Below, piece by piece: positions 39,307 to 63,508 of a DNA stretch of 64,000 nucleotides; the first letter of the stretch is position 1, and the number at the start of each line of letters is the position of its first letter. This stretch comes from Bilabrum cf. latius (taxonomy: Eukaryota). The translations under genes were made by a program, and so were the position numbers. The stretch spans positions 620,001 through 684,000 of the forward strand of contig OZ237744.1 in assembly GCA_965178125.1 (NCBI GenBank), in the 5' to 3' direction. The notes beneath the pieces are model-generated. The model made no database searches, was not told where the DNA came from, and saw nothing but the letters and a program-made list of their open reading frames with translations.

Positions 39307-39699
39307 ATCATGCAAACAGAACTTCTATGAAGTTTGAGCTCCAAATTCGTCTCCTACAATTCTTCTACTTCTTCTACATCAGTATTTACCAACAGAATAC
39401 ACCGGGACCCAAAATATCTTGTTATTTAAATAGTAATGTGTAGTTTAGAAAGAATGGGCGTTTCGGTCTCTTGGAGAAATCACAGCATAAAATGGGGACC
39501 AATGGGCCATATATTGACAGACGTATGATCGTACAATCCTTGTGTTGCGTCATCCTTGTGATGTCATTGGTTGTATAGTCTCGTGAGGCCCTGGTGTCCC
39601 AAGAACACCGTTTGGCATCTTCAGCGTTCGCCTGTTGGGCTACCAGAATTGACTGATTCAACAGCACGGCGCACTCCTACGATTAAATTGTTGTGGATT

Positions 39700-42600
39700 A
39701 TGCACTGTCTGGTGTCCAAATTCTTTTCAGCTTGCCTGATAGCTGAGCTATGTTACTTTGCGGGATCGAACCCATTGCTTGTGAGTTTGCCCTCTGCTCT
39801 GTCAATCGCAGGCGACCCATCCCTTGAACCTGATCTCAGTTGCAGCGCGTTGCTCGATAACCATACTTGCTCGGTCCAAGGGTCGGCGGCTGCGAATCTG
39901 TGGGGATGGCACACTTACTCGAATGCCGCGAACTAGATTGACAATACCTACACAGAAATTAGACATCAAACCAGCAGCAGTTCTTACAACTCTGGGCTAC
40001 GCCCAGGCTAGACATACAGAGGGCAAGTCGTAGTGTATGTAACTCCCGGTACTCCGACAACTTGCTCGCCCTCGGGAACGGCTAGCGGTTCGTTCCAAAC
40101 TGCAGCGGTATCAGGAGCTGACAACACGTGGAGAATCTCGGGAAGCCTTCTGTCTTGGAACTTGGAGACTGTTCTCAAGTTCATGAAATCAGACAGAGGC
40201 GCTATCACGGTGATCAGCGAGACCCACCCATCTGGCTGGGACTTTGGCGACGAGGTCGCGCCTGCTACGCGTTTGATCATCCCGCCGCAGAACGCCCACG
40301 ACTTTGTAATTGGGTACAGGAAGCAATTGAAATCAAACGGTCGTGGGCTCCTGAATGTTGTGGATGAGTTCAACGTCAACAACAAGCTCTAGTGCGGGGG
40401 CCAAACGCGCACCTCCATCACGATGGAAGCAATCATTCCATCGTGCGATCCGGGGTACTATTAGATCGGGAGGCAGTGTTACGGCTGCCAGACCGACCAT
40501 TTTAATCCATACTGGTACCAAACGCAGCCCAGAGGCTCGGACCAAGGGGACAATGATCACCCTTGCAAGGTTTGCCTGTCCATCTCCGAGCCGGACGGAT
40601 AGCGGAAAGAGGGCTTTCACTGCAGGTTCTGTCGGCCCGAGCTGGACGACTAGGAGAATCAGTTCGTTCAACCTGGCTTCTGCTTTGCAGACGGTACCTG
40701 CCAAGACCGCTTCACCCAGCAGTTCGACCCCCAGCTGCAGCGGCCGAATCCCTGCATGCAGTGCCTGCCGCAGGTCAACCCATGGGGATACTCCAAAGCC
40801 GATGGGGTCTCATGTGATGACGATGACAAATGCACCAAGAATGACAGGTGCAACGATGGCATCTGCCGAGGCGAGGATGCCGGCTGCTTGACATTGGCTA
40901 GGACAGGCAGGGCTCACGCCGACTGCGAAGTCTGCTCGACGAGGTCTCCAACGGGGTGCGGCGTGAAGCCTGGTTTCCGTGGGTGTGTTGTGCAGGAAGA
41001 CGCAACCGCAGGAACACCAAGATCGTGTGGCTGCTTGATTGGACAGCAGTGCTTCAGGCACGGAGCAGCAAACCCCGAGAATCAGTGCGAGGTGTGCGAT
41101 GTGTCCAGGGACGCGGGTGCGTGGAGCAACAATGACGGGGGTAGGTGCGATGCCGGGGATAAGTGTGTTATTAATGCTCAATGCGTTGCTGGAACGTGCT
41201 AGGGGTCCAGGTATGTATGTCCCACGGGTGCGTGTGTCGCATCAAGTGAGTGCGACGGGGCCGGGGGCTGCAATACCACCTTCTTGTCTCCTGACACGGT
41301 TTGTAGGCCCGGCATAGATGCCTGCAAACCTGAGGTGAGGTGCACTGGTACGACTGCTGCCTGCCCCAGATCCATTGACCTGATCCCCTAGATCTCTTTG
41401 GGGCGGGTTCTACCCGCAGGGGAGCCGCTCAGTGGGGGTGCTGCTGCCACTCCAGAGGACGGTCTCGGCGTGTCCGTGCCACCAGCACCCTCTGCAGTCC
41501 TGACAAGCGATGGTCGGCAGCAGCTGCCATCGCCGGCATTCTTCGGGTTTCCTATGACGCGCGGCATGAACCTAAGCTTGGGACATGGCTCCCCAGGTGA
41601 GGGTCGGAAGATGTCCATTGGTGCCTTTGGCTTTGACGTGACATGCGGCTCGTTGTCATACGAGTGGGGCGTATTCGTCGACTCAACGGGGACACGCAGC
41701 TGTTCAGCAGCTCATGCTAATGCTCTTGTAGACCGCAGCGCTCTGGGAGGCTTCGATACGCTCTAGCGAACGGGTTTGGGCGCCGATGCGGCCGATATTC
41801 CCGTGAGGTGGGCCACTGCGACCGGTGCAGGCGGGCTTGCCGATGGAGATTAGGTCCGTGCTGTGGTGCGAGTGACTACGATTCGAGGCACATCCCGAGT
41901 TGCATGCTCCTTGCCAATTCGCTTGGATGAGTCACCTCCAACCGCTGGTCTTGCTATCGAAGCTGCGCCAGGCCAGGCTGGAGAAAGTACGGTTGAGTCC
42001 GCCATCTAGTTTGCCGCAGCTGCGCCAGGAGCAAGCACTGACTTGTTTGACGCCGATGCTACGGCTTCAAATTCGCTGACGCTTTCTTGGAAGGGCTTTG
42101 ATGACAGTCACAGTGCTTTTGAAGGGAACAGGCTGCAGTACGAGTACTGCGTAGAGCGTGAGGACGGGCCGATGTGCGGTGAGCTGGGATGGACGCCAGC
42201 AGGTCTCGGAACTGGATCTACCGCCACATCGCCTCTGCTTCTGGCGCTCCAGAACGGCATGCGGTATGTTGCACGGATTAGAGGGTACAATCGCGCCGGC
42301 CTTTATGCAGAAGCCGTTACAGACGGTGTGCTGATCGACAGGACCCCTCCTGCTGTGCTGTCCTCCCACCTTGCTGATGTCTCAGTTGCAACTTCTGGTG
42401 ACGTGGCTGCTCCTGCACCCACCTCAGTGTCGGCTCCTGGCACCCCTCGGGCAGTTCGTTTGAGCATTGGTCGGCTCACGGATGCCTCTGATTTCTCAGA
42501 CGCCCGACCTGTGGACACTCTGCGAGCTGCAGTTGTTGTGGCTGCCACCACTGGCGCAGAGGCGGAGCATCGATTCGTTGCAAACGCAGCGCTCGCAGCA

Positions 42601-45600
42601 GCAATGGTGCCAACCCCAGCTGTTGATGCCTCCGGTATCATTCGCTACGAGGTAGCATGGGGTACTGCCCCGGGGGAGGCCGACGTGGAACCTTGGAATA
42701 CTCTGTGGGAGGCTGAGTCGGTTGGAAGGATCGATTCGAAACTAGCGCCAGGCAGGATTCCTGCTGCCGCTGACATCCCGTCGCAGCGAGACCTCGTCGC
42801 CCTTGCGCCTGAGTCTGTGGTGGATATGCTTGTTCCCGGAGCGAAGGTGTACGCTTCGTTTCGCGTTTGGAACGGCGCAGGGCTATCCACCGTTGCAAGC
42901 GCGGCCTCAATTGGCCTTGACTCGACACCTCCTCGTTCCTGCGACATCGTGCAGGATGGTGGCGCAGTGACAAGCCGATCTCGATTCCAGGTCGCGGTGC
43001 GATGCACAGAGCCTGAATCTGCGCTCGCAAGCGGGCTGGTAAGGGTAGCTCCTGGCCACGGCACACAGGTGCCTGGCGGACAGGGTGCTCTTCGCGACAG
43101 CTTGGTGCCCATTCAAGATGCAGCAGCTCCTGGTGGTGCATCAGGCTCAGTCAATCGCTTTGGAGTGCTCTGGACGTCAACTCTTTCAGCTAGTGCTGGC
43201 CTCACCCATGGCAGTAAAGCTAGAGTTTGCGTCCTAATTCGAAATGCGGCCGGCCTTGCTGCCTCGGATTGGGCATGCAAGAACGTTGTCATCGACGAGA
43301 CCAGTCCTACTGTCTTCGATCTCGTTGCAGAAGCACCGGCCAATAACGACAGTATTGGGATAACTTGCTTGCAGTCTCTGCCGTTCGAGTTCGGATCATC
43401 TGCACCTCCGTCGATGGCACCATCACCGACATCTTCAGTTTCCCCGAGTGCGACACCGTCGCAGGATCCTTGTTCCTTCGCTGAAAGCGCGGATGGTAAC
43501 TGCACTCGGGCATCTTCATCCCCGTCGCCGTCTTCGAGTGCATCGCCGAGCGTATCAGCGAGCCCAACGCCAGGATTGCAATGGCTTGTTGGTCCGAACG
43601 GAGGCACATTCGGTGTCTCATCCTTTGGAACAAGAGGTCCAAGCTTGTTTCTGAGATGGACATCATCACAGGAAGACATCGGACAACTTCTCCGGTACGA
43701 TTTACGGATTGTAGGTTACATCCCAATCCATGCTGGCGGCGCAGGGGAGGAGTGGGGCTTGGCCTCTCCCGGAATACCATAGTCTGTACGACACGGTAGC
43801 GTCTGGGCAGATGGATACGGTGGTGTGCCGAGCAACGTGCATGCTGGGTGGGTATCTTTGCTACTGTAGCATGGAACGAACTCATCCGGTAGCCTCTCTC
43901 CGTAGGAACTGCTCGGTGCGACAGTGCTAGACCGAGCAGCTTCGCTGGGAAGTGCCTCTGTTGAGGTGATACTGCCGCCGACCATGACCACAGAGTCCGC
44001 GTCTGCATTTGGTGCTGCAACAGGTTCCAGCTCCAGTTCCGCTCGTAATTCTGCATTTGGCTCTAACGAGGGATCCCTGTCGTAGGACGGAACAAGCGGC
44101 TTACCTGACCATTTTGGTGTTGTAGTAGACTGGGTGTCTGTAGGGTTGAGTCAGTACGCGGACCTGGATGGAACTGAATGGGCCGACTCGCCGATAGCCG
44201 TGGCAACAACTTGCAGCGCGGAAGGATTCACGTCGGGCACTGGAGCTCCAGATCCGCACCGCGCAGTGAGCACTCTCCTTCCGCCATCAGCGATTCACGA
44301 TGGCCGAGGGTACTATGCGCAGGTGAGGAGTGTGAGCAGAAGTGGCAGGGCCAGAGTTAGAACCATCGGCCCGCTCTATGTCGACTCTTCACCCCCTCAA
44401 TCTGGCTTTGTAGCAGCTGGAGACAACTTCTGCGAAGAAGGTGAAAACACAGTGCTTCGAACCGGTACGGTGCCTGCTAGCTAGCAGCCATGCCCATTTA
44501 ACGGCATGATCACGTTACCCGCCAGCGGTTCTCTCGGAGACATGCAAAGGCGTAGAGCTTGGAGGCACGCAAATCGTCTTTCGGTTCGCATTGCTGGTTT
44601 CGGTGATGCACAGAGTGGGCTTGGCGATGTGCACGTTGCCGTGGGTGACTGCGGTACCAATCCTGAGGCAGCCTTGCCGTTCACGAGCGTTCAGATCATG
44701 TCAGGCTGGTAGCATGGCCAAGAAGTTGACCGGGTAGACGTAACGGTGATGCGGCGGAAGCGTTTGTCTGCCACTGGTGCTTGGGAGATGTCCATTGTAT
44801 CGATTCCTGGTTTGCAATTGCAAAACGGCTAGGAGTACTGTGTGTCGGTTCGGGCCGTGAACAGGGCCGGTCTGCCCTCTCAAACGGTAGTCTCGGAGAG
44901 CATCGAAATAGATGTACAACCTCCCATTGCGGCCCCTGGCCGCTTCGATCCTGCCGTGCGCGATGTGGCGGTCGGACTCGCGCAGGATTCGCTGACCAGC
45001 ATCACCGAGCCACTGCTCAATCAGTTGGCTGCGGCTGGCGCTGAAGCTCCAGCGGCGCAGTCGAATCAAACTGCTGGCAGCGCCCGGATGTTCTTGATTC
45101 CACCCCCTGCAGTCCGACCCCATATTGCATTGGAAGATATCCCTGGCCGGAGCTCTAGGGTGTGGCTTCGTCGCGTTACCAATTTGGCACCCAGTAGCAT
45201 GTGGCCTGCGGGCACAGCGTCCGAGCGATGGCAAGCAGATGCAGACTTCTCACCGAACCTTCATTACATTGCAGTGAACTGGACAGGGTTTCGGGACGAG
45301 GCAGACAATGCAGCCGGCCGCCAAATCAGGTATGCAGTTGCGATCGGGTCATCCCCCGGCGAAAGTGATGTGCTGCCGTGGCAATAGGCTGGTAGCGACT
45401 CAGCAGAGAGTTCTGGGCGCGGTTCTTTGATTCTTTCTCGCCCAGATGGCCGCCCGCTTGCTTCAGGCGGGCAGCGAATCTTCATATGTATCATGGCCGC
45501 TGATGCCGCCGGATGGACCACAACCGCTTGCAGTGACGGTGTCATGCTGGATGCCACTCCACCCGATTCCCTGTCCTCGATAATCCGAAGAAGCGATGTG

Positions 45601-48600
45601 ATTGAGGCTACCCAGGGCTCTCGAGTCGATCGAATCGCTCTTGCGGATGATACTGCGATATTTTCGGTTGCAAATGTAATTGATCTCGAATCACCGGTCT
45701 CTGCGCTACGGTGGAGGCTTGGCACCGCACCAGGGCTTGACGACGCTATTCGAGACACTGACGAGGGCCCATCCCGTGCCGTTGGCGGGTCCCACGGTAG
45801 TGGGAAAGGTCGCTTTGATTTTGCAAAGCGACTGGCGAGTGATGCAAAGCTAGAGAGTGGGGTTAGGTATTTCTTGACAGTTGCTGTGTTTAACGGAGCC
45901 GGGCTTCCCAGCGTTGTCATTGATACAGATGGCGCATTCGTGGACGCCACTCCGCCATCGTGCGGTTCAGTTGCGGTTTACCCGGCTTCATAGCCTGTAC
46001 AGCCACCACCGTGGGCATCTGACGCCTCAGTATTGTTCCCTGGGGTTGCACTGTCTGCTGAGACGGACGAGCACGCTGTCCATGCCGACTCAGTTGCAGT
46101 ATGGAGCGAATCGACGACTGATCTCAGCGTGCAAATTCGAGGCCTGCACGAACCTGAATCGGGTATTGCTGGCCTGTACTGGAGCTTGAGTACAGTCTCC
46201 CGAGACAGCGTTGCTGCTGCAAGCTATTCTATGCAAAAGTTGATCAAGGATGCTGCGATGTCCCAAGGTAGCTCTGTTAGCGACATTCTGCTCTCCTAGC
46301 AGCCATCACTTATCGGTACGGCCTCCGATGTGGAAGCAGCAACGCATGCTTTTGCAAGCGGTGGTATGCAGGCTGCATCTGGATGGATTGAGGGAGCTGA
46401 TAATCTTCTTCACCGTGCGGGTGTCGTCAACGTATCCAGATCGAGACGCGAGCCCCTGTTGATTCTTTTGGACCGAGGCGATCTTGATGATGTTCCGCTG
46501 CAGCATGGCCAAACGTACGTATTTGGCATGCTCGCAGTTTCGGGGACCGGACGGGCGTGCTCAGCAGCCTCCCCGCCATTCACGGTGGAGGACCCTGCGC
46601 GTTCTTTCGGCGATATTTCGCTTCGCGCTGGTCCTATTGGTGGCTTCAACATGACAGGAAATAGGTCTTCGGCGTCTGCAACTTCACCTGTAGTCGCTAG
46701 CAGGCTGACGTGGATCACATCAGGCAACCACAAGGCTGAATCCGTGCCAATCCAGGCCTTGGATGATCCGATTGATGTGCAATTCTCTCTTCCCGCATTA
46801 TGGTTCTTCCACGAGATGCCCACGGTTGGCTCATCTCGGCCGTCCCATGCATCAGCTTTGGAGGAGGCGGGCATGACTTTAGAGTGGGCAGTTGGTTCAG
46901 CGGCTGGGAACAGCGATGTGGTTGCATGGCAGAGCATTCCTGTGGATACGCTGAATACAACAGCAAGCTCGGCTGCATAGCTTTGGGCGGTGGCACGACT
47001 TGTGAAACCGTCATCTGACCCTCCTGCGAGCCTCACATGGCGAGATCTTGGGGCCGGAACGCATTTCATTTCCTTGCGACTGCGTTCAGCCGGTGAGAAG
47101 GGTGTGACCGTGTCAACAGCAGGTGCAATCGTGGACTGGTCCTCGCCTTCTAAAGGGCCAAACAGCGCTGTGTGGCCTGTGCTTAGCGGCTGGTCAGGCA
47201 GCCGCAACTTTGATTATGTAGCTGTGACCAGATCTTACTTCTACAATGCTGTCGGTGATGATGCCGCGTTGAATATTGAGTGGTCGCGTGCACAGGATGC
47301 TGAGTCGTCAATAGTATCACACGAGGTGTGTCTTGGGTCTGAGGCTTCGTTCGCATCCACGTGCGGAGGGTTGGCGTGGCAACCAGCTAGGGGGCTCCAG
47401 CATTCTACCAGCCATGGCGCCGACCTTGGAGCTGTATCCAAGAGAGTTGACTCAACCCGCGCCAGAATCAGCCTTCGAATGGTCAACTCCACGCTGCTGT
47501 GTATCGCTTCGCCTGAGTGCCTGAGCACAGCTAGGTAGGCGGCGTCGGAGGCGTGGCAGAGTCGGTACGACGCAGAAGTGTCGGCAATACAAGCCAATCG
47601 ACTGGATAATGACACTACCCCGATCGTGGTGGAGGGTATGGATGAGTCGGAACGATTTGGGATGCTGCCAGACGAGCCTTAGGGCTTGATTGCACGCGTT
47701 CGATCTAGATCAGCAACAGGATTGAACGTTCTGATGTCGTCTTCTCCGATCCGTCTGTACCTTGATCGCGACGCACTAGCTATGGCATAGCACGTGAAGA
47801 ACGCAACGGAAGTTTCCCGAGCTGCCAGCCCTGCAACGGTGTCCGGACCGCTGGTTGTGTCGGTCGCTGTCGAACAGTCGTCGATCCCGCAAGCGAACGA
47901 TCTGATCAGCTCTATCAACGCAAGTTCCAATAGTACGGAAATCGTACTAGAGCTTAACCGGATCCGAGGACAGTCTCGGGGACTTGTTCTGCCCTCATCC
48001 TTTGCGTGGGTAGAAAGTGCACGGCCGCTGACCTAGTTCGATATTTCGAATTCATCCCTGCCGGCCGATAGCAGCCGTGCTGTCCCAGTATTACCGTTTG
48101 GCACAGGGTCCGCTGAGGGCCTGCGGCAAACCGCGCAGAGCATTGCGGATCTATGGAGTAGTGGCTATGGGATTGCCATTGGGTTTTCAGGGGTAGCTGG
48201 CTAGCCACACCAAGTAAACAGGGGGGAGCTGGCGCAGCTCGCTGAGATCTCAGCAATATCCGCCAGCTAGCGCCTTGGCATACTCCCCAGCGACTTGGAC
48301 AGCCCCGAAGCGCCATCCGTACGGGGCAGTATGCAACTTGATGAGGCTGGCGCTGCGCAGCCACCCATGGCAACCATTGAAGTAGGCATCGGTTCATCGC
48401 CCCAAGCAGTGGACATCCGCCCGTTCTCTAGTCATGGCGTGCGGTTAGAATCAAGGGAAGTGGTTGGGCCGCCCGGTGTTGATTCACGATTGCTCACTCA
48501 GCGCGATGTTGATTCGGGCAACGCCACGTGGCAGATCGCCTCTGTACGCCCAGCCACTATGCTTAGCGATCGAATCTATCGGGTCCGACTCGAATCTCCT

Positions 48601-51600
48601 CCAGTAGCTAACCATGGATAGCAGCTGTACTTTCAGGTACGATTCACTGATGCAGTCGGCAACTCTGCGATTCTTGGAAGTCCGCCTGTGTTTGCAAGTT
48701 CGCAGCCACCGGTTGGGCTCAGAGTATTCGGGGGTCCTCTTGGCTCGCTCTCGCCTTCTAGTTACTCGCGTGGGATCGTTGCCCAATCGTCAACCAATCA
48801 GATTCACGCGCACTGGCTTCCCGCCCATTTAAGCGGTGTTCAATCTTCATCTTCTGGCATCGAATTGGTGCAACCGGCGGATAGGATCGACTACATGGTG
48901 ATTGCAGTAGGCACGGCTCCGGGTGCTTCGGACATTGTCGGTTCGCAGCGACTTGGCATCTAGTCGGTGATACGACACGCAAATGGAAGCAGCACACCCA
49001 TCCGACCTGGGCAGGCCGTAGATTCGGGGGCACACGTTGCTATGATAGGACCATTCGAATGGAGCAGCCGGGCAGATCTTACCTTGAGCGGAGGATAGCG
49101 ATACTACGTGAGCTTGCAGGCTGTTGCGCTGTCAGGACTGTCGCAGTAGTTCGTGTCCTCAAGTGTGCTCGTTGATTCTGCTTCGTGCACCGCTGGACAA
49201 GTCGACGTGGCCAAATTCTTGCCTCCGACGCCTGGCAGCGGTTCCGCCGCCACAACGCTGCATGCGTCGTGGTCCGGATTCTCGGACCCCCCACAGAAGG
49301 CAACAACCTCTTCCAACCCGGCCTCAAGCGGCTTGGTAGGGTTTTCGGTGGGCGTCGGAACCTCAGCTGATCCATCGTCCTCGGAATCCACCAACGCTCT
49401 GCCTTCAGGAAATAGGGTCAGTGTCGGCATGGACGGGTCCGTGTCGCTATCAGGCCTCGCCCTTACTAGCGGCAGTGACTACTTCGTCCATGTGTGGGCG
49501 ACAGATGCAGCCGGTCAGAGCTGCGTAGCAACTTCGTCTGCAGTGCGCGTGGACTCGTCTCCTCCGACGGTTGGCTAGGTCTACGAACTGGTGGATGCAG
49601 ACACGTTGCATACAGCCAGCAGCAACGGTCAGTTTTTGAGCTCGTCAGATGACGCTAGCTGGATATCGAATACGACGTGGCTTTTTATAGGTTGGAACGA
49701 TGGATTCACCGACCCTGATTCCGGAGGCGGTCAAGGCGGCAGAGCTGATCTGCACTTTGAGATCGCAGCTGGGCTGCAGGCCGGGATAAGCGATGTGCTG
49801 GGCTGGACATAGCTTGTACCAACGTACCTTGACCCGTTTGAAACGTCTGCATTCGCTGCCACAACAGGCAGTGCATCGCCAGGATCGCGCCGATTACTGC
49901 CAGCGCGACGCTTGTCGGGCGCCGGTGCATCTGATTTGCTATTGAGAGGTGCCATCGTTCAGGGTGTTGATCTCCAGCACGGCGACTGCGTTTACCCTCG
50001 TGTACGTGCCATTAACCCTGCTGGTCTCCGAAGTGCGGTGGCGTCAGGGTCAGGTGCTTGTGTGGATCTGGTGCCTCCGGAACGACCGGCTGGGCTGCTG
50101 TTTGAGGCCATACTTGCGAACCCTGAGGACATTTCGATCGCTAGTGTCAACCTGCGGCTAACTTGGACGGATGCTCAGGATGGGCAAGGTGTTGGACAGA
50201 GTGGTCTCGAGTCGATCCGTGTCGCATTTGGGCGCCAACCGAATGATGACTCCGCACTTGCTTGGACTACCCTTACGCCGTCGTCCAGGTCGCGAGAAAC
50301 CGGAGCTAGGCAAGACATCGCTGTTGGTGGGTACGTGGCGACGATCGTGCTAAAGGATGTTGCCGGGAACGAAGCAACATTCCATGAAACCTCCGCAGTC
50401 GATCTAACGGCCCCTGCGTCGAGCCTGGCTAGCGTGCTTGATGGTATCCACCAAGGCGAGGATGTGGACTTGTGCAGGTCTCCAGGCTTGCTGACAGCCA
50501 CGTTCGAAGGATTCAGTGAGCCGCAAAGTAACATAGTTGAGTACGTTGGCTGTGTCGGCGAGTGGAGCGTGGCGAGCACCGGTAGCACGTCGGCGCCAAC
50601 CTCAGGACAGTCTTGCTCGTTCACTAACGGGTACTCTCTGTCCGTGCCTGGATCTTCTCGCATCATGGAATTAGACGTATCGGGATTGGGTCTCGCTATG
50701 CTCGAAGGACACGGCTACTACTTTGGTGTGAAAGCCATCAATGACAATGGAGATGAAAGTGGTGTGGCCTGGTCGGACGGGTGCGTGTGGACGGTGGACC
50801 AGCCAACCCTAGTAAAGCAAGAATACGATGCTATGCTTCAAGCAGCAAGCGATGCCGAAGAGAGATCTGGCCTTGGATTGTAGCCCTACAACTTCATGGG
50901 CGACGTCCAGCGAGTGCTGCAGGTCTTGCAGAATGGAACTGAGAACTCTTCGACGCCGCCCAGCAGCCAAACTTCACGTAGGCTTTCACCGCGATTCAGA
51001 GCAGAGTCTTTCCCTCCTTCACAGAGAATCCTACAAGCTGTCTCCGCAGGCAGAGGCTCAGAGATGGATGCATCCCTTATCCATGACGATAGAATCGTAG
51101 ATCCGGAGTTGATGGGGCAACAATTGCGGGAATAGGTGCGTCCGAGTATCGTCACCATTGGTAATCCCCTCCGAGGTGGAGTCGCAACCGAGGATGAGAC
51201 CCGGTGCGCTTGTCCCGGGCCAGGCATGGTGAGCGTTCCAGTTGCAGTGGGAGGCTCAAGCTAGCTTGAATCCGGCGAGAACCTCTCACCGCTGCAGCTG
51301 GGGCAGCCGTCTGGTACGTTCGACTCGCAGTGCGTGTGCAAATCGGGGTATGAGCCATCGCAATTTTTCCCTGGCCTGTGCACACCATGCTTGCCGGGGT
51401 ACTACAAGCCAAGTTCTGGGATGCACGCGTGCCACGCATGCCCGGCAGACGCCTTAGATTCGCCGCTAGCGGATGACTTCGAGATTCAGCAGAGACGGAG
51501 CGCTGTCCAGGATGAAATAAGAAAGGTTGTCGATGGTCATCTCCCGGACCGCGGACCGACCGCAGATCCTAGGGCTGGTTCGACATCTTGCCGGTGCAGT

Positions 51601-54195
51601 GATCCCGCTCTGCAGGTCTTCGTTGGCGGCCCAGACCAATCTGCGGCGAGGTGTGCTTGCATAGCCGGGTATGAAGCCAGCACGCCGGGCCGGGCTGCTC
51701 TCATAGCGTTCGAAGAGAACTTTAGTGCAGACGATGATCTGGACGACGCGACTGCCGCACTCTCCATTGATCCGGATAGTGTCTGCCTTCCGTGTGCCGC
51801 CGGGTCGTATCGTAGTGATTTGCTATCCACGACTTGCAAGCGGTGTCCGAACGGGGTGCCCTCGCTGGCTGATGGCACTGGTTGCGACTGCGAGTTAGCT
51901 CGCACCGCTCCGTTCGGCAGCGCATTCGATTCCAGTCAGGAGCGGTGCGTGTGCCCGCCATGGACAGTGCTCTCTGCAGATGGGACGTCGTGCATCAGCT
52001 GCCCAGCCGGCACGTATGCCACGCGGTCATCCGCTGATTCAAGCAGGTCTTGCCTGCAGTGCCCAGCAGGAAGTAACCCCATCTTTGATGCAAAGACTCA
52101 GGAGCCTTCGTGTGACTGCAGCTCGCTTGTGGCAGGGGCTGTGTTTGAGGCATCGGTTGGTGACTGCGGCTGCCCTGCCGGGACGATGCTTAAGGGCGAT
52201 GAATGCGTGTCATGCCTGACTGGGGTGCTCCCTGCCGACTGGGAGCAGTGGGCAGAAACTGAGCAGAGCGGCTAGGCGTGGCTGGCGCGGAAGCAAGCCT
52301 ATGCTGAGCTGGAGGCCGGTGTCAGAAATGGCTCCGTGCAGGAAGAATCCATGGTGTCAGCTCGGATGCGAGCATCGTCGGCTGACACAGGAACTGTGGG
52401 ACCTGTAGGTGATCTATATCAGCCACGCTGGCGCCCTTTGAGCGAGGCTTCGGCTCCATGCGAGGGAATTTGCGCTTGGGATGCAAGTGTAGTTGTGGGG
52501 GACGCGCGAGAAGCTGCGTTTGCGCTGGTATCTCCTGTCGTGGGCTGGAGACCTTTCGTGTACCTGGACTGGATGGGCATCTTGGAGCATAAGCCTGCTG
52601 CTCCAGCCATATCCACGGTGAGAGTCGCGGTGGGCACCACGATCGGCGGTTCCCAGCTCCTTCCTTTCACAGAGGTGCCAACAGCAGCCACGCGGGCAGA
52701 GGTTCGTCTCCCTGACGGAGCGCCCTAGTCTCAGCCCTTGTTTGTTACTATAGCCGTTGTGGACGAGCTTGGCAGCCAGCTCGTGGTGGAGGACCCAAGG
52801 CCGGTCATGTGGGAGACTCTGGCGCCTGCCGGTGGCCGTGCCGTGGAAGCCAGTCCAGACGACTGGGACGAGGCGTGGTTGCTGGACCGCCGGCTAGCCG
52901 ATGCATCGGCCAGGCTTGACTCACTGCTGCTGCAGAACCAGACCGGTTAGTCGAACGTTACCTTCAACTCCAGCGCTGTCGTCGCAGCCATTGATACAGA
53001 TGAAGATGAGGCGAGGTCGGTATAGAGTCTTATTGATGTCATGACTAGTCTGAACGAGACAGACCTTGCCCTGCGAGGCGAGGTCGTGCTAGACCCTCAG
53101 CTCTGGCAGCTGGACCCCACTTTTGTAACCGTGGATCGTCTACGCGACTCGGATTTGACTGTTGATGCGGAGAGCATCACCGTATCGTTTGAGCCGTTCT
53201 CTGGCCCGTGCGGGGAGGCGTGCCTACTCTCGGTTGTAGCATGCCTCGGGACGAGTCGCTACGTGTGTGACGTGGTCCCAGCGCGTGTCGTGGGCCAGGA
53301 GCCCTCGACGATGGTCACCGCGGTGTCGTTCGACGGCGCACCGCTCCGGTCTGGTGTTCGGTATTTTGCGACGGTTGCTGCGCGATCGCACGGCGGATTC
53401 GTGTCGTTAGCGTCCACCGATGGCCTGCTGCTCGACCTTGAAGCACCACAGGCAGGCTGGGTGTCTGACACTATGCCTGCTTCGGTTTCCTTCGGCCTAT
53501 CTGCATTTGGTGACCAGCAGCAACCAGCAACGGCTGACTCTCATGATATTGATTGCGTTGGTGTCAGCCACGCTGCCAATGGAAGCGGGATCTCGGCTTC
53601 GTGGGGGGGCTTTGCAGACACCGCCTCGCCGCTGTTTGAGGGCACGTCCATCGGGCCAGATCTAGTAGCTTCGGCAGGCTTTCCAGCGGTCGCTGCGTCT
53701 GGACTGGAAGGATTTGCTTGGAGCGTGGGCACTGCCCCACTGGCTGATGATGTCATGGCGTGGACGCAGGCTGGCCTATCGACCTCTGGGTCTAGTGCCG
53801 CACCAATCGCAGCAGCGCTGGCCGAGGGGGGATTGAGAGTAGGAGATGCTGTCTATGTGTCGGTAAGAGCTGTCGATCGGGCGGGGCATGTGGCAGAGGC
53901 ATCTAGCGATGGGGTTCGACTCGTGTGCGACCGCGAATCGATCGAGGCTTCGAGCTGGGGATGTTCCGAGTCTGTGGAGCACGAGAGCGAGGGGAATCTT
54001 GGCTGGGACGGGCGAGATTTCATCTGCTTCAATTCAGGACTTCCAGAGCGTAGGTAGCAACTGGCAGCAAACATCACTTCCATTTCTGCTAGGGCGGCCA
54101 CGGATGCGTTGGTGACGGGTGGTGCGCCTGATGCCGCCGCCGCAAGTGAGCAATTGGGTGAAGTACGCAGCGTGCTATCCGGATTAAGTGCATGA
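39700..54195 (+). CDS. Giant secreted Cys-rich/FN3-like multidomain protein (~4,831 aa), apparently intronless; requires TAG read as sense
   Basis: More than 20 plus-strand ORFs from 39571 to 54057 share one frame and are joined across TAG. The first in-frame TGA I found is at 54193-54195. ATG 39700 gives MHCLVSKFFSACLIAELCYFAGS (signal-peptide-like). Contains Cys-rich modules (~40440-41370), DxTPP/DxESG FN3-like modules, a Ser/Pro linker (~43400-43570) and CxxCxxGxY repeats (51334-52230). Confidence 0.9.
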
Positions 54196-54362
54196 TAACA
54201 ATCCAATGATGTAGCTTTTGACTATATATTACTCACGATGCGCGACATCTGTTGGGTGAACCACTGCGGCACCTAGCATTGAATCACGCACACCCACCGG
54301 CATCCATCCACTGTATAACCCTGTGAGTTTCAGCTGGTTGAGCTGCCTGCTACAAAAACGAA

Positions 54363-55709
54363 TCAAGCCACTCCGGCAGACGTGGCGCAGGCCACCAGTG
54401 AGGCGAGCACAAGCGCGCCGGCTCCGACTCGAGCAGAGGCGAGGGCACCGTCGTCGTCTCCGCCGGCAGTGTCATCATTTACCACATCGTCGTCTCCACC
54501 AGCAGTGTCATCATTTACCACGTCGTCATCGTCGCTACCGCTGCAGCAGGTCGCCGCGGAGGTGTAGTCGAAGTTCTCACCGGCCTGGGTCTTGGGTAGG
54601 AACGTCACCGACATTGCCTTGCCGAAGGTGTCGCGCACAGCGGATGGGAGGGGGATTTCCGTGCGGTCTCCACCGCGCTGGTCGGGGGTGAACATGATGC
54701 GACCAGCCGGTACCCCGCTGCTCCCCGACTCTGATGAGGGCAGAGTGATCCAGAAGTACCGCTGGTCCGGGTCGTAGGCGAGCCCGGGACGATCGGCCTC
54801 CTGGATCTGCAGGCCTGTGACCAGTGCATTGAGGCTGGACACGCCGGGAAGCTGGAAGGACTGAACGGCGCCCTCTGCCCCGCCGTTGCGGTACCTGTGC
54901 TCGAAGAAGAATCCCCCCGATCGATCCCCGTTGAGCACGATCCCGTCGGGCCACCAGTCCTGCGACTGGCTGTACGAGAACTCGACAGTTGCGTTCGAGC
55001 CGGCCGTGGCGTTCCCGCTCATGATGCCTTGTACGCGAGTGGTGGTTGTTGTGGTAGAGTTGCCGTTGGTCGAGAAGTAGATCGTTCCGGCGTTGCTTGC
55101 GTCCTGGGGCGACGAAGACGCATTCTTTGGCAGGAACGAGATGCCATTGGGCCCGCCCGTCACCGGAGCGTCACCGAACATCGACACGGTCTGGCCCTGA
55201 CCACTTTGTGAGATGCGGAGCACGCCACCCTGCTGCTGGTCCTCGCCAAGGTTAGAATTACCTTGCGTAACGAACACGTACTGGCCAGCACCATCTGCGG
55301 TGATCCTTCGAAGGTCAGCCCCGGCGGAACTCAGGGTCGCGATTGCAGTGCCGCACTGTGAAGGTTCAGGACTGCCCACATTTACACGGATCACCTTGTT
55401 GCTGCCAACAATGGCGAACAGTGCCTCAGCCGACGTGTCGAATGCCAAATTAAGTACATTTGCACCGCACGTGGCGATTGTAGTGTACGAAAGCCCGTCT
55501 GCAAAGCACAATGCGTAAATAAATTAAGTATACAACATTAATTACAGATATTAAAGGCCGTGGTTTACTCGTAGAGGTCAGAGGTCCGCTACGAACAACG
55601 TACCTGTGGTCGTTGCTATCCTCCCTTGATTACCACCAAACGCCACCATGGCATTCCGGGCACACGCCAGTGCTGACAAGGTCCCGATGACAGCGCACGC
55701 GGTTTTCAT
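54363..55709 (-). CDS. Secreted, probably GPI-anchored surface protein with a beta-propeller-like region and acidic stalk; exons 55709-55604 and 55498-54363
   Basis: Exon 1 MKTACAVIGTLSALACARNAMVAFGG is signal-peptide-like. A GT-AG intron at 55499-55603 joins it in frame to DGLSY. Repeated GxxxD/PxGI-type blade motifs (GPNGISF, WPDGIVL, RPGLAYDP), an Asp-rich repeat, and a hydrophobic C-terminus GALASARVGAGALVLASLVACATSAGVA. Ends in TGA. Confidence 0.75.
54451..54522. repeat. 36-bp coding tandem repeat (2 near-identical copies) encoding DDDVVNDDTAGG
   Basis: tcgtcgtctccgccggcagtgtcatcatttaccaca followed by tcgtcgtctccaccagcagtgtcatcatttaccacg. Confidence 0.85.
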
Positions 55710-55827
55710 GACAGCAAGATTCTATGGAGTACAAGAGGTACATTCCGCTAGATGTGGTTCTGGGCTGTTTCCGGCTTGCCACATCAACCGCCAAAATTCA
55801 AGTCGTACCTCTTTGTAGCTTAGTTTG
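55710..55827. promoter_or_regulatory. 118-bp divergent intergenic region (probable bidirectional promoter)
   Basis: Separates the ATG at 55709 (-) from the ATG at 55828 (+). Confidence 0.45.
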
Positions 55828-57798
55828 ATGGCCTATACTGTTTCAATATGTATGTGGTCTGCACTGATGGCCTCATTCACCCTGAGCGTTGCCAGTGGTG
55901 GCGCCCCTCCCAAATCTTCGAGGCAGGATCCACCCATTGTTCTAGACTTTAAGGCTATGCGCAGGAGAGCATAGAGCGGCACAGAAGAAGTAGTAACGGC
56001 AGTAGATAATCCCGGTCTACATTTTGTATGTTCCATCCCTGAGCTGGGTGTGTCGTGTGGCGTTTGTGCCACATCGTCGCAGCAGCCAGTCTTGCTGTTC
56101 AATCTGTCCAAGACGCAGAGTCACATGCCAATTACACTAATTAAATAGTCTGATGATAGAACAAAGCTATTTGCAGCGGACCTGTGCTCAAACCATGGCT
56201 GGGATGCGGCCAGGACAGTGCAAGACGGTTTGGAAGCTGCCGTGTAGCCGGACGATAGGTAGCATTTGAATCTCTCCTAGTGCACAGAACCCGCGCCGAA
56301 TGCGAAGCCGCCCGGTCTGGTTTATTTTGACGGTGACAGTGGAGGCGGTCTCTTCAACCCCAGGCCAGATTCTGCCGCCGGCGGACTGCCGGCTTCGCTC
56401 GCGGCCCCGAGAGCTGCGTGCTACTGCCATCCCGACAACGGGGGAGAGTGCGCCCCTTTGCTCCCCGTATTAGGATCGTTAGAAGGACAAGGGAGAGTCT
56501 ATCGGCCAGATATGTATTCAAGGGGCAGGGGATCCACCACAGAGGCAGACGATCCTGCGGGCGGCGGCGGCACCCCAGCCGCTGACCAGGTTCCCGAAGG
56601 TTCGCTGACGTGGTCCGGTGTGGATGTGCTGAGTATCGACGTGGGAAGAGGAGATGCAGGGCAGGGTGGAGAGGCGGGGGACGTCCATCAGGAGGAAGTT
56701 GCGGTGTTCAGCTTTGGATCTCCCGCCATGGGCTGGGACGGCGGTGACTGGACACAGGCGGGGGTTCTTGTGCCGGGCTTGGGAGACGGCTCTTCGCGGG
56801 AAAATCAGGGCTGCTTCGGAAGGTCGGGAGTCACCGGCCGCTGCGCCATAGTGATGGTGCTGTCGTGCGATCACGATGCCTTCGAAGAGGTCGAGGACGA
56901 TGCGAGAGACAATCAAGAAGAAGAAGGGACCAGCAAGGTGGTTCGCCTCGACCTAGAGAGGCCTCCCAGAGTATCCGACAGCATTCGAGACAGGAACACG
57001 CGGGATGCCTGCGCTCTCGTCCTGGAGCGAATGGGCTTCAATATCAATTCGGACGTGCAGTCAATCTGCCTGCGCGTGTTTGCAGCTGAGGCGTGCTTGT
57101 ACTAGCCATGTCCCAACGCCTGCAGCGCCCACGGCCAGTGCTTGCCCGACGGCTCTTGTAGCTGCGACTAGGGCTGGGCTTCGGCCGACTGTTCCTCTGA
57201 AGCCACTTGCATGGAGCAAGGCGGCTGCAGCGAGTTTGCAGCCTGCAGGTGGCAGATGGGGGAGACCGGTGAAGGGCAGGATGGCGGTGGCGGAGATGGC
57301 GAGGATGGGCCTGCAGTCAGGCCAACTGCAGTGTGCACATGCAGGGGCGGGTATCGCGGGAACGGCTAGGAATGTTCGTCGGATCCTAGGAGCGGGTTCG
57401 CGGGACCCAGCAATGGGGGTGGGGCCGAGGGTGAGGTGGTGGTGCTGTTCGTGCTGGTTGCGGTGCTGTGTGTTTCTGTAGGCACTGCGTTGATGTGCAT
57501 CTTGCTGCGGCCCTGGATCGCGGCAAGGTGTCCCGCGTGCGGCAAGTTGCTGGCTCGGTGCCTGGGCGACGGGCCAGGCAATGCTAGCACATTGCGGGCT
57601 CGGAGGGAGCTGGCGCAGCTGCGCGGCAGGACCGGAGCTCATGGCGAGATGGAAGGGACGGGCATTGAGCTAGAGAGTGACAGCGATGGTGGCACTGGTG
57701 TCGAAGGGGGGCAAGGGGCTGCGGCCGATGCAGCTGATGTCGACAATATGGTGCTGGCCGATCATCATGATCCTGGTCGAGCAGCGACGGCCGTGTGA
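55828..57798 (+). CDS. Type I membrane protein with two EGF-like domains (~656 aa); 8 in-frame TAG codons
   Basis: ATG 55828 gives MAYTVSICMWSALMASFTLSVASG (signal-peptide-like). One frame runs to TGA at 57796 with only TAG interruptions (55972, 56146, 56245, 56260, 56278, 57103, 57169, 57367). EGF-like CPNACSAHGQCLPDGSCSCD*GWASADCS and CTCRGGYRGNG*EC; TM segment VVVLFVLVAVLCVSVGTALMCILL. Confidence 0.8.
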
Positions 57799-58001
57799 TG
57801 GACAGCGCCACAGCATGTGTCACTGACATAGTGGTCGTGTGTATTGCGTGTAGTCAGTCCACGGTAATCAATTTGTTGGTTGCGACATAGCGACGCATGC
57901 GGCCCACCTGGGCATTCCCGATGTTCCAGTAGCAGCAGCAATGTCTCAAGTTCATCACACACGCAAGCCATCCAGATCAAGCTCTACCAAAGAGGGGCCC
58001 T

Positions 58002-59695
58002 TCAGTTCATGAATCCCGACCCGCTCACAGCGATCGCAAGGATGGTTTCCTTGCAGGCAGAGAAGACGCGCTCCACGTTCTTGGTGTCCCTGCGGTGTAC
58101 GAGAGTGTACGAGAGTGTGCGCGAGGTAGGCTAGGTGCTTGCAATGGTAGCAGTAGGCGCTGCCGGCGGGGCGAGCGTACATTGATTGAGCGCGCGTTGC
58201 CGACTGGGACCGTCTCTCACGTGGCGCATGTGACATAGGGGTACACCTTGCGCGCCCCGTCCTCGGCGATGTCAGTGAACTGATGCTCCATGTACTCCTG
58301 GGCCCCCTTGAGCGTTTCCTCCTTTTCTTCCTCGCTCATGTCCTCGCTGAGCATGCCCCCATCGTAGTCAACGAACCTTCCGTCTTCTTCGTCCTCGTCG
58401 TCTCCTTCGGGCAGCTGCTTGATGTCAACCTTGTACAGCTTCTCCTCGAACAGGTCCTTTTTGTTCAGGAACAGGATGAACGACGTTGACTCGAGGAAGA
58501 ACGAAGACGAATACAACTCGGAGAACAGGCGAACCGCCTCATCAACTCTGCGTGACAGAGCATCGAGTAGGGTGCAAGCACGGTAATGGCGTTGGATTGG
58601 CTGCAACTGCTGGTGCTCGGGTATGCATGTCCGAGGCGCAGGCCGACCAGAGGCAGGCCATTCACAGCCATGCACCCAACTAACCTGTTTGTGACTCCAT
58701 CCTCGAACAGGACCTGGTCGTACTCGCTGATTGCTGCCACAAATATGACCGCGGTGACCTGAGTTCAGAAAGAGGGGCCGCAATCGAGGGAAGCAATGCA
58801 AGTGCCCCCCGGATTACAAGACAAAGGTGCAGCTGCAGGCACAAGAGTACTTTGCTCACATTGTCGAAGCAGTTGATCCACTTCTTGCGCTCATTCCTCT
58901 GCGGGCACACAAAAAGAAGCAGGCGGATGAGATTCTTGGACGGGCGTTCTTGCAGCATTGCAATCCAATGGTCGGTGCAGCGCGTGACGCAGCAATGTCT
59001 CACCTGCCCACCGACATCATACATTTCAAATGGGGTGCCTTCGATATTGTACTGCTCATTCACAATCCCGCTAGTACGCACGCGAGACGCCAGAATGTCG
59101 CTGACGGAAGGGATGTACGACGGCTTCGTGACTTCCTCAGCCTTGCTCAGGAAGCGCTTGGTGCAATCATTAAGCTGGAACGACGCCCTCTTTTCGAAGG
59201 TGGCCTGGATGCCCGGGTCCTCCCAAAGTGCTTTGACAGCAGCGCCGTCGTCCTCATCGAGTTCTCGCTCGGGGTCGAAGCCCTTGGCGCGCTCTGCTGC
59301 CTCAGTTGCCTCGATTTCGTGGCCAAGGATTCCGGCCTGGTCAATCAATACTTGCACTGAAGTAACGATGTTGCCGTGTATAATGCCTCGCGACGCCGCC
59401 CGATCGGCTTCGCCAAATCCACTCCCGTACAGAATCCTCATTTGCTTGAAGATAGTCGACTTCCCGCTGCGCGAAATTAAATTGGACGCAGCTATTAAGT
59501 GCGGTTGAAATAGGATACCGCGCGACGCTGTGCAATACCACTAGCCTGGCCCCTGCGAAAGACATTTTCTCACGATTCGCCAGCGCCCAGCAATAGCAGC
59601 TTCACCTTCTACTCCTCTTTCTTGTGCTCCTCATCCAACTACTTTTCGAGCTCATATGCAAGCTGTGCCGCTTCGGAGCTCCCGCACAAACCCAT
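58002..59695 (-). CDS. Heterotrimeric G-protein alpha subunit (~370 aa); exons 59695-59574, 59466-59004, 58898-58860, 58758-58685, 58547-58221, 58089-58002; two in-frame TAG codons in exon 1
   Basis: MGLCGS lipidation motif; G1 KLLLLGAGESGKST; G2 RVRTSGI; G3 DVGGQRNERKKW; G4 FLNKKDLF; G5 TCATDT. Five GT-AG introns of 101-137 nt with consistent phases. Ends in TGA. Confidence 0.95.
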
Positions 59696-59845
59696 GTTTC
59701 ACGGTGTGTGTTGCGGAGTCCCAGCCGCCGAATCGTGCGACCAAGAAGCACGCCACTGCGATCGCAGCGGAACCAAGATTTTCTGGCGCCACGCACTGGT
59801 TTGGATCGCCCACAAAGACGCATCAGCTCACGGATTGCTGCACAG
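59696..59845. promoter_or_regulatory. 150-bp divergent intergenic region (probable bidirectional promoter)
   Basis: Separates the G-alpha ATG at 59695 (-) from the amidase-like ATG at 59846 (+). Confidence 0.5.
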
Positions 59846-61871
59846 ATGGCTTCTGTTGGGGGCGGTGGCGAGCTGTAGAAGACATATGAGCGAAAGATCC
59901 GTGGCCACTCTCTCGTGGATGCCCACGCTCGATTCGGCGACAAGCGCTTGACCGCAAAAGACTTGCTCACGATTCTTACAGCACACCGTGACGCGCATGC
60001 CGACTCTCTAAACTGCCTCACGTCCATTGAGGATTCTGATACTATCATGTAGGTTCAGCCTTGATCCCGAATGGTGCCCTTGCATGCCTTGGGGCACTTC
60101 AATGCGTTGCTGGCAGTGGGTCCGTTGGGTAGCCCGGTCCTTGAGTGCCTTCTGCTGCAAATAATAATCGTAATTGTTTAAATGTGAATTCATTCATTTT
60201 CGCCTTCTTCATCTCGCAGCGAGAGTGGGGCTCAAGCCGACGAGGAGCGCCTGGCGGGCAAAGGGAAGCCACTCGGCGGAATCCCGTTCGTTGTCGGCGA
60301 TACCCTGAACACTAGCGACACGGTAACGTCAGCTGGGACTGAGTTTTTGGATGAGTGGGTGCCGAGTGACACTTCCCCCAGCGTATTGGCCCTTCAGGCA
60401 GCAGGCGCAGTGCGTATCGGCAAGTCAAACGTGGATTCCCTGGGTGAGGCTGAGGTTAATGTATCATGCTGACTTGCCACGCCAAACTTAGCGTGGCTTT
60501 AGCTGAGGCAATAAGTAGCATTGCGTGTCGGTGCCGTCAACGCAGCGCCGCATGGTTCGCCCATGCCTTTTCGCCCGTCGCAGGACACAACAACGGCGGC
60601 TCGTCCGTCCGATTTGGTGTGACGATTAATCCTTACAGCCCAGCCCATGGTACCGGTGGAACGAACGGTGGCGCTTCCGCGGCAGTGGCAGCTCGTATCG
60701 CGATGTTTGGCCTGGTCACAGACACGGACGGCTCAACCATGGCCCCAGCTGCCCTGTGCGGCACGGTGGCCTACCGACCTACGCCCGGCCGGTACCTCGC
60801 TGCCGGTGCCATTCCACGCTCCATCAGCTTCGATGGCATGGCCGTGGTGGCACGAACCACGTAGGACGCCCGCATCGTAGACGCCGTGCTCTCCGCTGCA
60901 GGCACCGCGGGAGCGGAAGACGCGGAAGAGGCTGCAGCTCAGGTAGACTGGCGACCGTACGTGGAGGAGGTGCACATAAAGGACGCCTCTTCTGCCTCTG
61001 CGACCGGGGAACGAGCCAAACCCGACATCAAGGGCGTGAAGGTTGGCGTGATCAAGTCGTTTGGCGCAGACGCGAAGGACTCTGCAGCGACTGGATTTGC
61101 GAGCTTCCTGCGCGCGGCAGGGTCGGGCGGTGCGACTTTGGTGGAGGACGTGCCAGTGGACGACGTGAACGGGATGGCACTGCCAGATGTGGCCAAACAG
61201 GTCATGGGTAGGGTGTGCACGTACGAACAGGCCCGCGAGCTAAGCCTGTACTTTTACAGGAGAGGTGCACGCACGAGCGCGCTGGACGTCGCAGAGCACT
61301 TGGAGGAGGATGGGATCAGGGGCAAGCTGGTGAGCCAGCTGACGGGGGAGGAGGGCATCGACGGCGTGGTCTCGTTCGAACAGTACCGCGAGGACATCTC
61401 AAAGAACATCCCTGCCATCAAGGCAGCCGTCATGAAGGCCTTTGAGGACGCTGGAACTGGCCTTCTGTGCTGCATTGCTACCCCCGATGGGACTGCTGCT
61501 GCCCTCCCTGGTGATGCGGGCAAGGGCATCACAGGGGCCGCTTCCATGGCTTCGCATGCGTCCGTGTTTGTCATCGTGAGTTGTGTCGCGCGTGCTATTT
61601 CGCGCATTGCTCCCTGTTGCTGCATGGGGACTGCCGCTGTTCTGCCGTACGATTTCCAGCGATTCCCCCACCTGCGCTGTCGTTTCGTATCTTATCGCAG
61701 GCTGGCTGCCCCGTGGTCTCCATCCCCTTCAGCAAGCTGAACGGCGGCAAGACCCCCTCGGGCGCGCTCCTGGTGGGGCAGCCCGGCAGCGACGGCGAGC
61801 TCCTGAAGGCGGCGCACGGCTTGCAATCGCATGCAGGATTCCCCGTGGGACCCAGCAAGTTTGTCAAGTGA
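59846..61871 (+). CDS. Amidase-signature (AS) family protein with degenerate catalytic triad (~529 aa); exons 59846-60048, 60220-60443, 60584-61575, 61701-61871; in-frame TAG at 59876 and 60862
   Basis: PLGGIPFVVGDTLNT, LQAAGAVRIGKSN, FGVTINPY, GGTNGGASAAVAA, VTDTDGSTMAPAALCGTVAYRPTPGR, ART, and C-terminal AGCPVVSIP...PSGALLVG...DGELL follow the AS-family order. GT-AG introns have consistent phases. Ends in TGA. Confidence 0.85.
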
Positions 61872-62149: not shown

Positions 62150-63508
62150 TCAAAGCTCCTCCGCTCTCGATTGTCTAGTGCCAGAGCCCCCATCGGTACC
62201 CTTGGATTGCACGTCTGCAAGCCTCCTGGCCATCTCCCTGGTGATGTCGAGGTACCCACGAGGCCCCAAATCGCCGTAGTCCTTGAAAGTTTTTGAGGTT
62301 CCCAGTCCTCGCCGCATATCCTCGGGTATGCCCTTGCCATCCGGCACGGTCCACGGCACAGCGGGCTCGATCTGCGTGCCCTCTCCCCACTCGTTGAACG
62401 TCGAGACCCCCACCGATGCTGGCGGGATGGGAAGACCCAGAGCCGCCTCCCACATCCCTCGGTAGTACTGCCCTCCATTCCTTCTCCTTACGTTCGCTTT
62501 GTTCCACGGTCGGATCCTCGAATCGTCGTACCCAGGAGCCACAGAGGGCATGAAGAGCAGCCCCAGCTGGCCAGCCTCCTCCGCCATCGTGGGCCACCGA
62601 CCGGGAGTGGAGCCGTAGCTGAACCCCGCCGCTCCAAAATACGTGTAGCCGCCGTCAAATCCGCCTGCTCGCAAGTCTTTTCCGCTTGTTCTCTCTAGCC
62701 AGAGACCGATCGCAACCACGTCACGGTCCGTGCCTCTGATGCTGCTGACGGCACCTTCTGCTTCCACTATACCGGCGTGCGTATCGGGCGCCTCTGAATC
62801 TCCCAGCAGCAGTTTCCACTCCTTTGCTGTGATGTGATACGAATCAAACACGTACACTACTGGACCACAGTGTCCTGTTCGCGTGCCGCTAGCTGACGCG
62901 CACCGTGATGCTGTCGATGGCTCGCGCTGCCATTGCTGAACGCCTGCATCGGAGCGATACAATTTGCACCACAGCATAGCCGGATGATTTGCATACTTTG
63001 CGTTCACGTACTCCAGATCTGCCTTTATTGAATGGATGGACCGGTTCCTATACGGCTCCATGTGCAGCGAGACCATGATACCTTCCGCTGCAGCATCATC
63101 CATCAGCTCAAGTAAAAAGCCATCAGAGTTAACCCCTTGCGTATCATGCGTACCTTCAACATCGGGACGCCCCCACCACGACACTACAGCGGTAGTTATC
63201 CCAGCATCTGCCATTTGACGGAAGTGCAACCGCCTAGAGGTCGCACTCTGAGAGCTATACAGGCCAAGCTACGGATAAAACGGAGAGTGAGGATCTTCTG
63301 GAGGGCTATACTATCCCTTTGGGTACTATTCTGTGACAGATGAGACCCAGTGAGGTAACACCTCGTGGTCCCAATGCAGCCACTTTTCGTTAATGTCCGG
63401 GTTTCCGTACCAAACGTAGTAAAACGCATGAACTCCCGTACAACGGTCGAGTACAGGAGGTGATGCAATCGCTGGAATGGCAAATATTACTGCCACGAGA
63501 ACCTCCAT
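62150..63508 (-). CDS. Glycoside hydrolase family 99 endo-alpha-1,2-mannosidase/mannanase (MANEA-like), ~452 aa; in-frame TAG at 63326, 63311, 63269
   Basis: ORFs 63326..63508 and 62150..63229 are in one frame. VHAFYYVWYGNP, HWDHEVLPHW, PFYP*LGLYSS, LHMEPY, GGFDGGYTYF, FMPSVAPGYDDSRIRPWN and the catalytic motif STFNEWGEGTQIEP match GH99. Hydrophobic N-terminus. Ends RAEEL-TGA. Confidence 0.93.

Follow-up and report, generated by a model that had tools for sequence, protein, structure and literature searches.

The question raised by this locus is what TAG means to the organism that carries it. The coding sequence of a G-alpha gene (58002 to 59695, minus strand) is interrupted twice by TAG close to its start, and a sequence-only reading of the surrounding DNA had proposed, from this gene and from the repeats of giant proteins nearby, that TAG encodes glutamine. 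We analyzed the whole stretch of 64,000 nucleotides (the window), which is eukaryotic nuclear DNA with a GC content of ~57%. Under the standard code, the window is broken into 76 open reading frames (ORFs) with a length of 150 codons or more. Treating TAG as a sense codon instead reveals two giant frames, at 3 to 35015 on the minus strand and at 39571 to 54195 on the plus strand. Together, these contain 132 TAG codons, no TAA codon, and no internal TGA codon in 16,545 codons. In each of the remaining frames, TGA occurs 98 to 583 times; hence, the absence of TAA and TGA from the two giant frames is not due to chance. TAG also occurs in frame within the genes for G-alpha, GH99, UBA1, an amidase, and an EGF-domain protein. 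All seven TAG codons that the sequence-only reading had placed by coordinate are present in the frame and context it described, and the four motifs that it had quoted by their letters alone could be located.

The first giant gene (g1; 3 to 35015, minus strand) has no intron within the window, contains FN3-like repeats, and runs off the left end of the window, with at least 11,671 codons that include 90 TAG, no TAA, and no TGA. It holds three of the TAG codons placed previously (ML-TAG-HNRTY at 21072, DVDW-TAG-DS at 21258, and QY-TAG-RSST at 10386). The second (g2; 39561 to 54195, plus strand) has a 5′ exon that extends to 39582, an intron at 39583 to 39811, and a main exon at 39812 to 54195; its 5′ leader was located at 39553 to 39582. 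The g2 frame at 39571 to 54195 has 4,874 codons and a terminal TGA, with 42 TAG, no TAA, and no internal TGA, and it includes LQNG-TAG-EY at 44830 and GWT-TAG at 49810. In the spliced gene, an ATG at 39561 is in frame and codon 6 is a TAG, one beyond the 42 of the main exon, which puts a reassigned stop very near the beginning of the gene's reading frame. The nearest full-length database homologues of g1 and g2 are only 24 to 28% identical, and we rejected the distant homologues of g2 as a site-by-site test because they are too far off. In one homologue searched with Pfam, FN3-type domains were the only ones identified.

The two FN3-like-repeat giants flank, head to head, the gene for ubiquitin-activating enzyme E1 (UBA1; 35632 to 39306, plus strand), which was identified by Pfam (E = 5.5e-60) and PDB matches, contains one TAG at 36550 to 36552, and ends with TAA. 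A search of the Atlas matched it to generic eukaryotic E1 clusters only. The 5′ part of this mechanically defined ORF (35632 to 35890; residues ~46 to 85) aligns neither with the human enzyme nor with the orthologue on L001 (see below) and probably contains an intron. Downstream of g2 is a gene to which no function was assigned (54363 to 55729, minus strand), with a 382-codon ORF that lacks TAG, an intron at 55499 to 55603, a TGA stop, and a poly(A) site at ~54204. It is followed by an ORF for an EGF-domain membrane protein (55648 to 57798, plus strand) that has nine TAG codons, among them CSCD-TAG-GW at 57169 and GNG-TAG-EC at 57367, and a TGA stop. Beyond G-alpha lie an amidase-family ORF (60466 to 61740, plus strand; Pfam Amidase, 3.9e-21), with a TAG at 60862 to 60864 (ARTT-TAG-DA) and a TGA stop, and a GH99 endo-alpha-mannosidase gene (62150 to 63508, minus strand; Pfam, 1.2e-83), with three TAG codons, at 63326, 63311, and 63269 (YP-TAG-LG), and a TGA stop. 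The best named matches of GH99 are from a cryptophyte and from green algae, at 41 to 43% identity, a similarity too low to place the organism.

The G-alpha gene (Pfam E = 5e-48) has six exons, separated by GT-AG introns of 101 to 137 nucleotides at 59467 to 59573, 58899 to 59003, 58757 to 58857, 58548 to 58684, and 58089 to 58219. Exon 1 (59574 to 59695, minus strand) begins with an ATG at 59693 to 59695, matches solved G-alpha chains, and contains both TAG codons, at 59639 to 59641 (AYELEK-TAG-LDEEHK) and at 59609 to 59611 (KKEE-TAG-KVKLLL); the two codons bound the interval to which the sequence-only reading had drawn attention. That reading had ended exon 1 just past the first TAG, which is too short; the exon runs through KVKLLLLGAGES to 59574 and is followed by the first intron. 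When joined at the junctions found in RNA-derived contigs (see below), the coding sequence of 1,113 nucleotides (370 codons and a TGA) is open except for the two TAG codons and the final TGA. The host of the window is a GC-rich, gene-dense, intron-poor eukaryote.

We aligned contigs of four public sequencing runs to positions 39701 to 59700 of the window, one of which (X7) covers only 6 of 30 bins. Contigs from X5, X6, and X8 contain spliced joints at which the excised segment has GT..AG ends in the coding orientation, corresponding to the five introns of G-alpha and one in the neighboring gene at 54363 to 55729, and an X8 contig has a loose poly(T) end at 54204. The records carry no RNA label; the spliced joints and the poly(T) end indicate that X5, X6, and X8 derive from RNA. 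For all four runs, no letters differing from the window were reported, and there were no substitutions at TAG codons; the contigs come from the same strain. An RNA-derived contig of 14,462 nucleotides covers 39812 to 54183 with no other letters and no gaps. Hence, all 42 TAG codons of g2 are present in mRNA, neither edited nor spliced out. The G-alpha junction 59466/59574 is crossed, also with no other letters, by contigs from X6 and X8 that reach 123 and 81 letters into exon 1, respectively, and both G-alpha TAG codons are therefore included. Another RNA-derived contig spans 55819 to 57707 in the EGF-protein ORF. We conclude that TAG is a frequent codon inside real, transcribed, and unedited coding sequence.

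The same contigs gave three further observations. The convergent transcripts downstream of g2 nearly abut: the g2 stop lies in TGA TAA at 54193 to 54198, g2 mRNA contigs end at 54146 to 54194, and the poly(A) site of the minus-strand gene is at ~54204. The g2 3′ untranslated region may be extremely short, and contig ends are an unreliable basis for this. Contigs from X5, X6, and X8 have 255-letter loose ends (at 58700 and 58758) at the small G-alpha exon 58685 to 58756, for which an alternative isoform, a paralogue, or a chimeric assembly may be responsible. Finally, identical sequence (no other letters) was found in eight runs (X1 to X8) filed under four organism labels by four studies. Perhaps the organism is carried along in other cultures, or perhaps it has been labeled at different ranks.

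The other two stop codons behave differently from TAG. Six of the seven gene ends in the window are TGA, one is TAA, and none is TAG, and the UBA1 orthologue on L001, a metagenome contig from a relative, ends with TGA. We conclude that UGA and, more rarely, UAA continue to act as stops. These gene ends bear on the possibility that UAG is ambiguous, i.e., that it specifies glutamine within genes and, depending on context, terminates some of them. A sample of just seven ends in the window and one on L001 would leave room for rare TAG stops. However, not one of the seven is TAG, a TAG occurs even at the sixth codon of g2, and TAA and TGA are never in frame in the two giant genes, whereas in the fully ambiguous codes that are known, several stops serve as sense codons (PMC12005148). 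We therefore consider ambiguity of UAG very improbable. The same counts distinguish the window from two other known types of code. In the code in which both UAA and UAG specify glutamine (NCBI table 6), TAA is a sense codon; in the window, there is no in-frame TAA among 16,545 codons, and UBA1 ends with this codon. In codes without a dedicated stop (the Condylostoma and Amoebophrya sp. ex K. veneficum type), all three stops are used as sense codons; in the window, TAG alone of the three occurs in frame.

Which amino acid TAG specifies is a separate question, and the sequence-only reading had answered it from internal evidence, using the repeats of the giant proteins as their own alignment. These repeats are 22 to 32% identical to one another in BLASTP self-matches. 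We built a hidden Markov model (HMM) of the repeat by iteration from 45 copies, in which 25 TAG sites fall in match columns, and scored each site by leaving its copy out, from the residues in the remaining copies, with substitution probabilities drawn from the same alignment. Over the 25 sites, Glu scored 0, Lys −0.45, Gln −0.52, and Arg −1.06 natural-log units. The profile thus rules out hydrophobic and aromatic residues without picking Gln, and the repeats cannot separate Glu, Lys, and Gln in the way that had been claimed for them.

Distant homologues of the conserved genes gave an equally mixed picture. The G-alpha context had been put forward as an argument for Gln, yet the first TAG is opposite Lys in a transducin chimera and Asn in a Gq-type chain, and the second is opposite Arg in solved structures. 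Human UBA1 has Arg opposite the TAG of the window. The amidase site, which had been cited as compatible with Gln or Glu, aligns with E, R, R, A, and D in structures and does not discriminate. The three GH99 sites correspond to N, R, and E in the human enzyme; among 120 database homologues, site 61 is most commonly Gln (Q 46, R 31, K 20), site 66 is mostly Arg (R 73, Q 1), and site 80, the YP-TAG-LG motif that had also been cited, is again nondiscriminating (A 32, L 31, E 15, Q 13). Because neither the repeats nor the distant homologues discriminate, the internal evidence of the sequence-only reading does not by itself carry the assignment to Gln. Taken at face value, these data could suggest that TAG specifies glutamate, lysine, or arginine: the repeat profile marginally favors Glu and Lys over Gln, Arg or Lys is opposite TAG in several distant homologues (UBA1, G-alpha, and GH99), and some structures have Glu at the amidase and GH99 sites.

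Close relatives, which could not be seen from the window itself, decide between these residues. L001 is a 3,802-bp contig whose UBA1 is 76% identical to that of the window over 1,120 aligned residues and has three in-frame TAG codons of its own. The window TAG at 36550 corresponds to CAG in L001, and the three TAG codons of L001 correspond to CAG, CAG, and CGA in the window. Scored with the substitution probabilities of the L001-window alignment, Gln was ahead of Arg by 7.2 and of Glu by 9.3 natural-log units.

A closer relative is represented by protein fragments from Logan assemblies (P0127, P0128, P0133, P0190, P0273 to P0275, and P0007) and is known here from proteins rather than codons. 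Identity is 87 to 97% for the fragments that match g2 and 90% for GH99; over 2,349 aligned residues, it is 93.1%. All seven g2 fragments end exactly at a TAG of the window. It follows that the gene caller treated TAG as a stop, that any Q inside a fragment represents an ordinary Gln codon, and that this relative shares the trait. Nine TAG sites of the window are bridged by fragments, and the residues opposite them are Q at seven, D at one, and A at one. In the same alignments, ordinary Gln is retained at 59 of 64 sites, and changes to Gln are rare at this level of identity for Glu (2/97), Lys (0/34), and Arg (1/142). Gln was ahead of the next residue, Glu, by 22.8 to 23.8 natural-log units with three pseudocount settings.

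Some fragments were set apart from this count. P0276 and P0277 are each six residues away from P0127 or P0273 and are not independent of them; they have Q, Q, Q, and L at four shared sites. At GWT-TAG (49810), where the earlier reading had favored Gln by comparison with another repeat, the 97%-identical fragment P0273 indeed has Gln, and the residue in P0277, a near-identical variant, is Leu. For three TAG sites, the residues in the more distant fragment P0154 (54% identity) are A, K, and A; this fragment says little, since it retains ordinary Gln at only one of four sites.

Overall, Gln is found at 10 of 13 TAG sites in close orthologues (7/9 in the 93% relative and 3/4 in L001). Tabulation of the orthologue columns opposite TAG, the check that had been proposed along with the claim, therefore favors Gln among close relatives; among distant homologues, the columns are mixed and not dominated by Gln. 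Judged from these alignments, TAG sites correspond to Gln in two related organisms that share the trait. Assignment to Glu, Lys, or Arg fits neither the residues of the close relatives nor the rarity of changes from these residues to Gln, and its likelihood is worse than that of Gln by ~23 natural-log units for Glu and >30 for Arg; we regard it as slightly less probable again than ambiguity of UAG. Leu, which the sequence-only reading had judged a poor fit, occurs at none of the 13 close-orthologue sites and once in a variant fragment, and its likelihood is 34 to 36 natural-log units below that of Gln. The weakest explanation, that the TAG codons are not translated at all, because of pseudogenes, removal by editing or splicing, or artefactual open frames, has nothing in its favor beyond the bare presence of standard-code stops and is next to negligible, since mRNA contigs retain every TAG and have introns only elsewhere, conserved enzymes contain TAG, two relatives have these frames open as well, with TAG at some sites in common and at others that differ, and neither TAA nor TGA has accumulated.

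With the close orthologues, the reading of TAG as Gln is supported, and we conclude that TAG very probably encodes glutamine in this organism, with UAA and UGA as stops (a code of the NCBI table 15 type). If so, TAG would account for 18 to 21% of all Gln codons in the giant genes, for 30% in the EGF protein, and for 2% in UBA1, where the Gln codons are 39 CAG, 2 CAA, and 1 TAG, with CAA avoided; the Gln content of the giant genes would be ~4.2%. This usage fits a minor synonymous Gln codon and is nondiscriminating on its own. We propose that cytoplasmic translation reads UAG as glutamine through a tRNA-Gln whose anticodon would have changed from CUG to CUA. Such an anticodon would read UAG and not UAA, and UAA may have stayed a stop for this reason; eRF1 would have lost or lowered its recognition of UAG. 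According to the passages on decoding in PMC11687900, an anticodon CUA should read UAG only, and UUA reads both UAA and UAG. No tRNA gene was found in the 64-kb window by ARAGORN or Rfam, nor was any other Rfam family.

A code in which UAG alone has become Gln is already known from a few eukaryotes, and the organism described here is a further case. In the fornicate Iotanema spirale, UAG encodes Gln, UAA and UGA are stops, and UAA is the primary terminator, as reported in PMC5304391. Like I. spirale, the organism described here is a nonciliate eukaryote in which UAG alone appears to have been reassigned to Gln, with UAA and UGA kept as stops. Unlike I. spirale, it ends six of seven genes in the window with TGA, and nothing ties a window with 57% GC and a heterotrimeric G-alpha gene to fornicates. 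Beside I. spirale and the ciliate Protocruzia tuzeti, UAG specifies Gln in two phyllopharyngean ciliate lineages, and the ciliates named with the UAG-only Gln code are Hartmannula sinica, Trochilia petrani, and P. tuzeti; phyllopharyngean ciliates have GC contents of 27.4 to 53.6%, and UGA is their rarest stop, ending 1.7 to 13.1% of genes (all from the parts of PMC11687900 that treat these lineages). The window shares with the UAG-only ciliates the codon table (NCBI table 15) and the line of evidence, internal UAG at conserved Gln positions. In contrast to phyllopharyngean ciliates, its GC content is 57% and TGA is dominant. A 64-kb stretch with multiple genes, GT-AG introns of 101 to 137 nucleotides, and a G-alpha gene is also what we take to be unlike a ciliate.

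Phages are known in which TAG is recoded to Gln (code 15), often in late genes only. The codon and its meaning are the same; the window differs in that it belongs to the nuclear genome of a cellular eukaryote and contains spliced genes. The UAR = Gln code (table 6) occurs in many ciliates, Ulvophyceae, Hexamita, Streblomastix, and Amoeboaphelidium, as summarized in PMC11687900. As in these organisms, a stop has apparently been captured by glutamine, presumably via an anticodon mutant of tRNA-Gln, but TAA is not a sense codon in the window. Other reassignments of UAG listed in PMC11687900 are to Leu, in an uncultured rhizarian (exLh) and in ciliates that include some phyllopharyngeans, and to Ser, in Scotinosphaera; in one ciliate, the amino acids specified by UAA and UAG differ. 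We considered Amoebophrya sp. ex Karlodinium and rejected it, since its genome, as characterized in PMC12005148, is AT rich and uses all three stops as sense codons.

In a literature search of articles apart from their supplements, we found no GC-rich eukaryote outside ciliates and fornicates in which UAG alone specifies Gln. There are fair odds that the lineage itself is new. The runs that contain the window sequence date from 2025, and a description of the organism may therefore be in preparation. It is quite possible, although we stop just short of favoring it, that the window and its 93% and 76% relatives represent an undescribed or unpublished clade of GC-rich protists in which UAG alone was reassigned to Gln independently and genes end mainly with UGA.

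Annotation with the standard code breaks the genes of this organism at every TAG, and the publicly available fragments from its relative are indeed cut off at TAG sites. One protein of at least 11,671 residues and another of 4,874 would be missed entirely under the standard code. Changes to the nuclear code are rare, and codes that give UAG and UAA different meanings are even rarer. If such a clade did reassign UAG independently, UAG would have become uncoupled from UAA once more in a lineage other than ciliates and fornicates, and the genome and transcriptomes would make the underlying tRNA and eRF1 changes directly testable. A high-GC lineage that terminates mainly with UGA would then be an independent data point on the capture of UAG alone and on the changes in eRF1 and tRNA that enable it.
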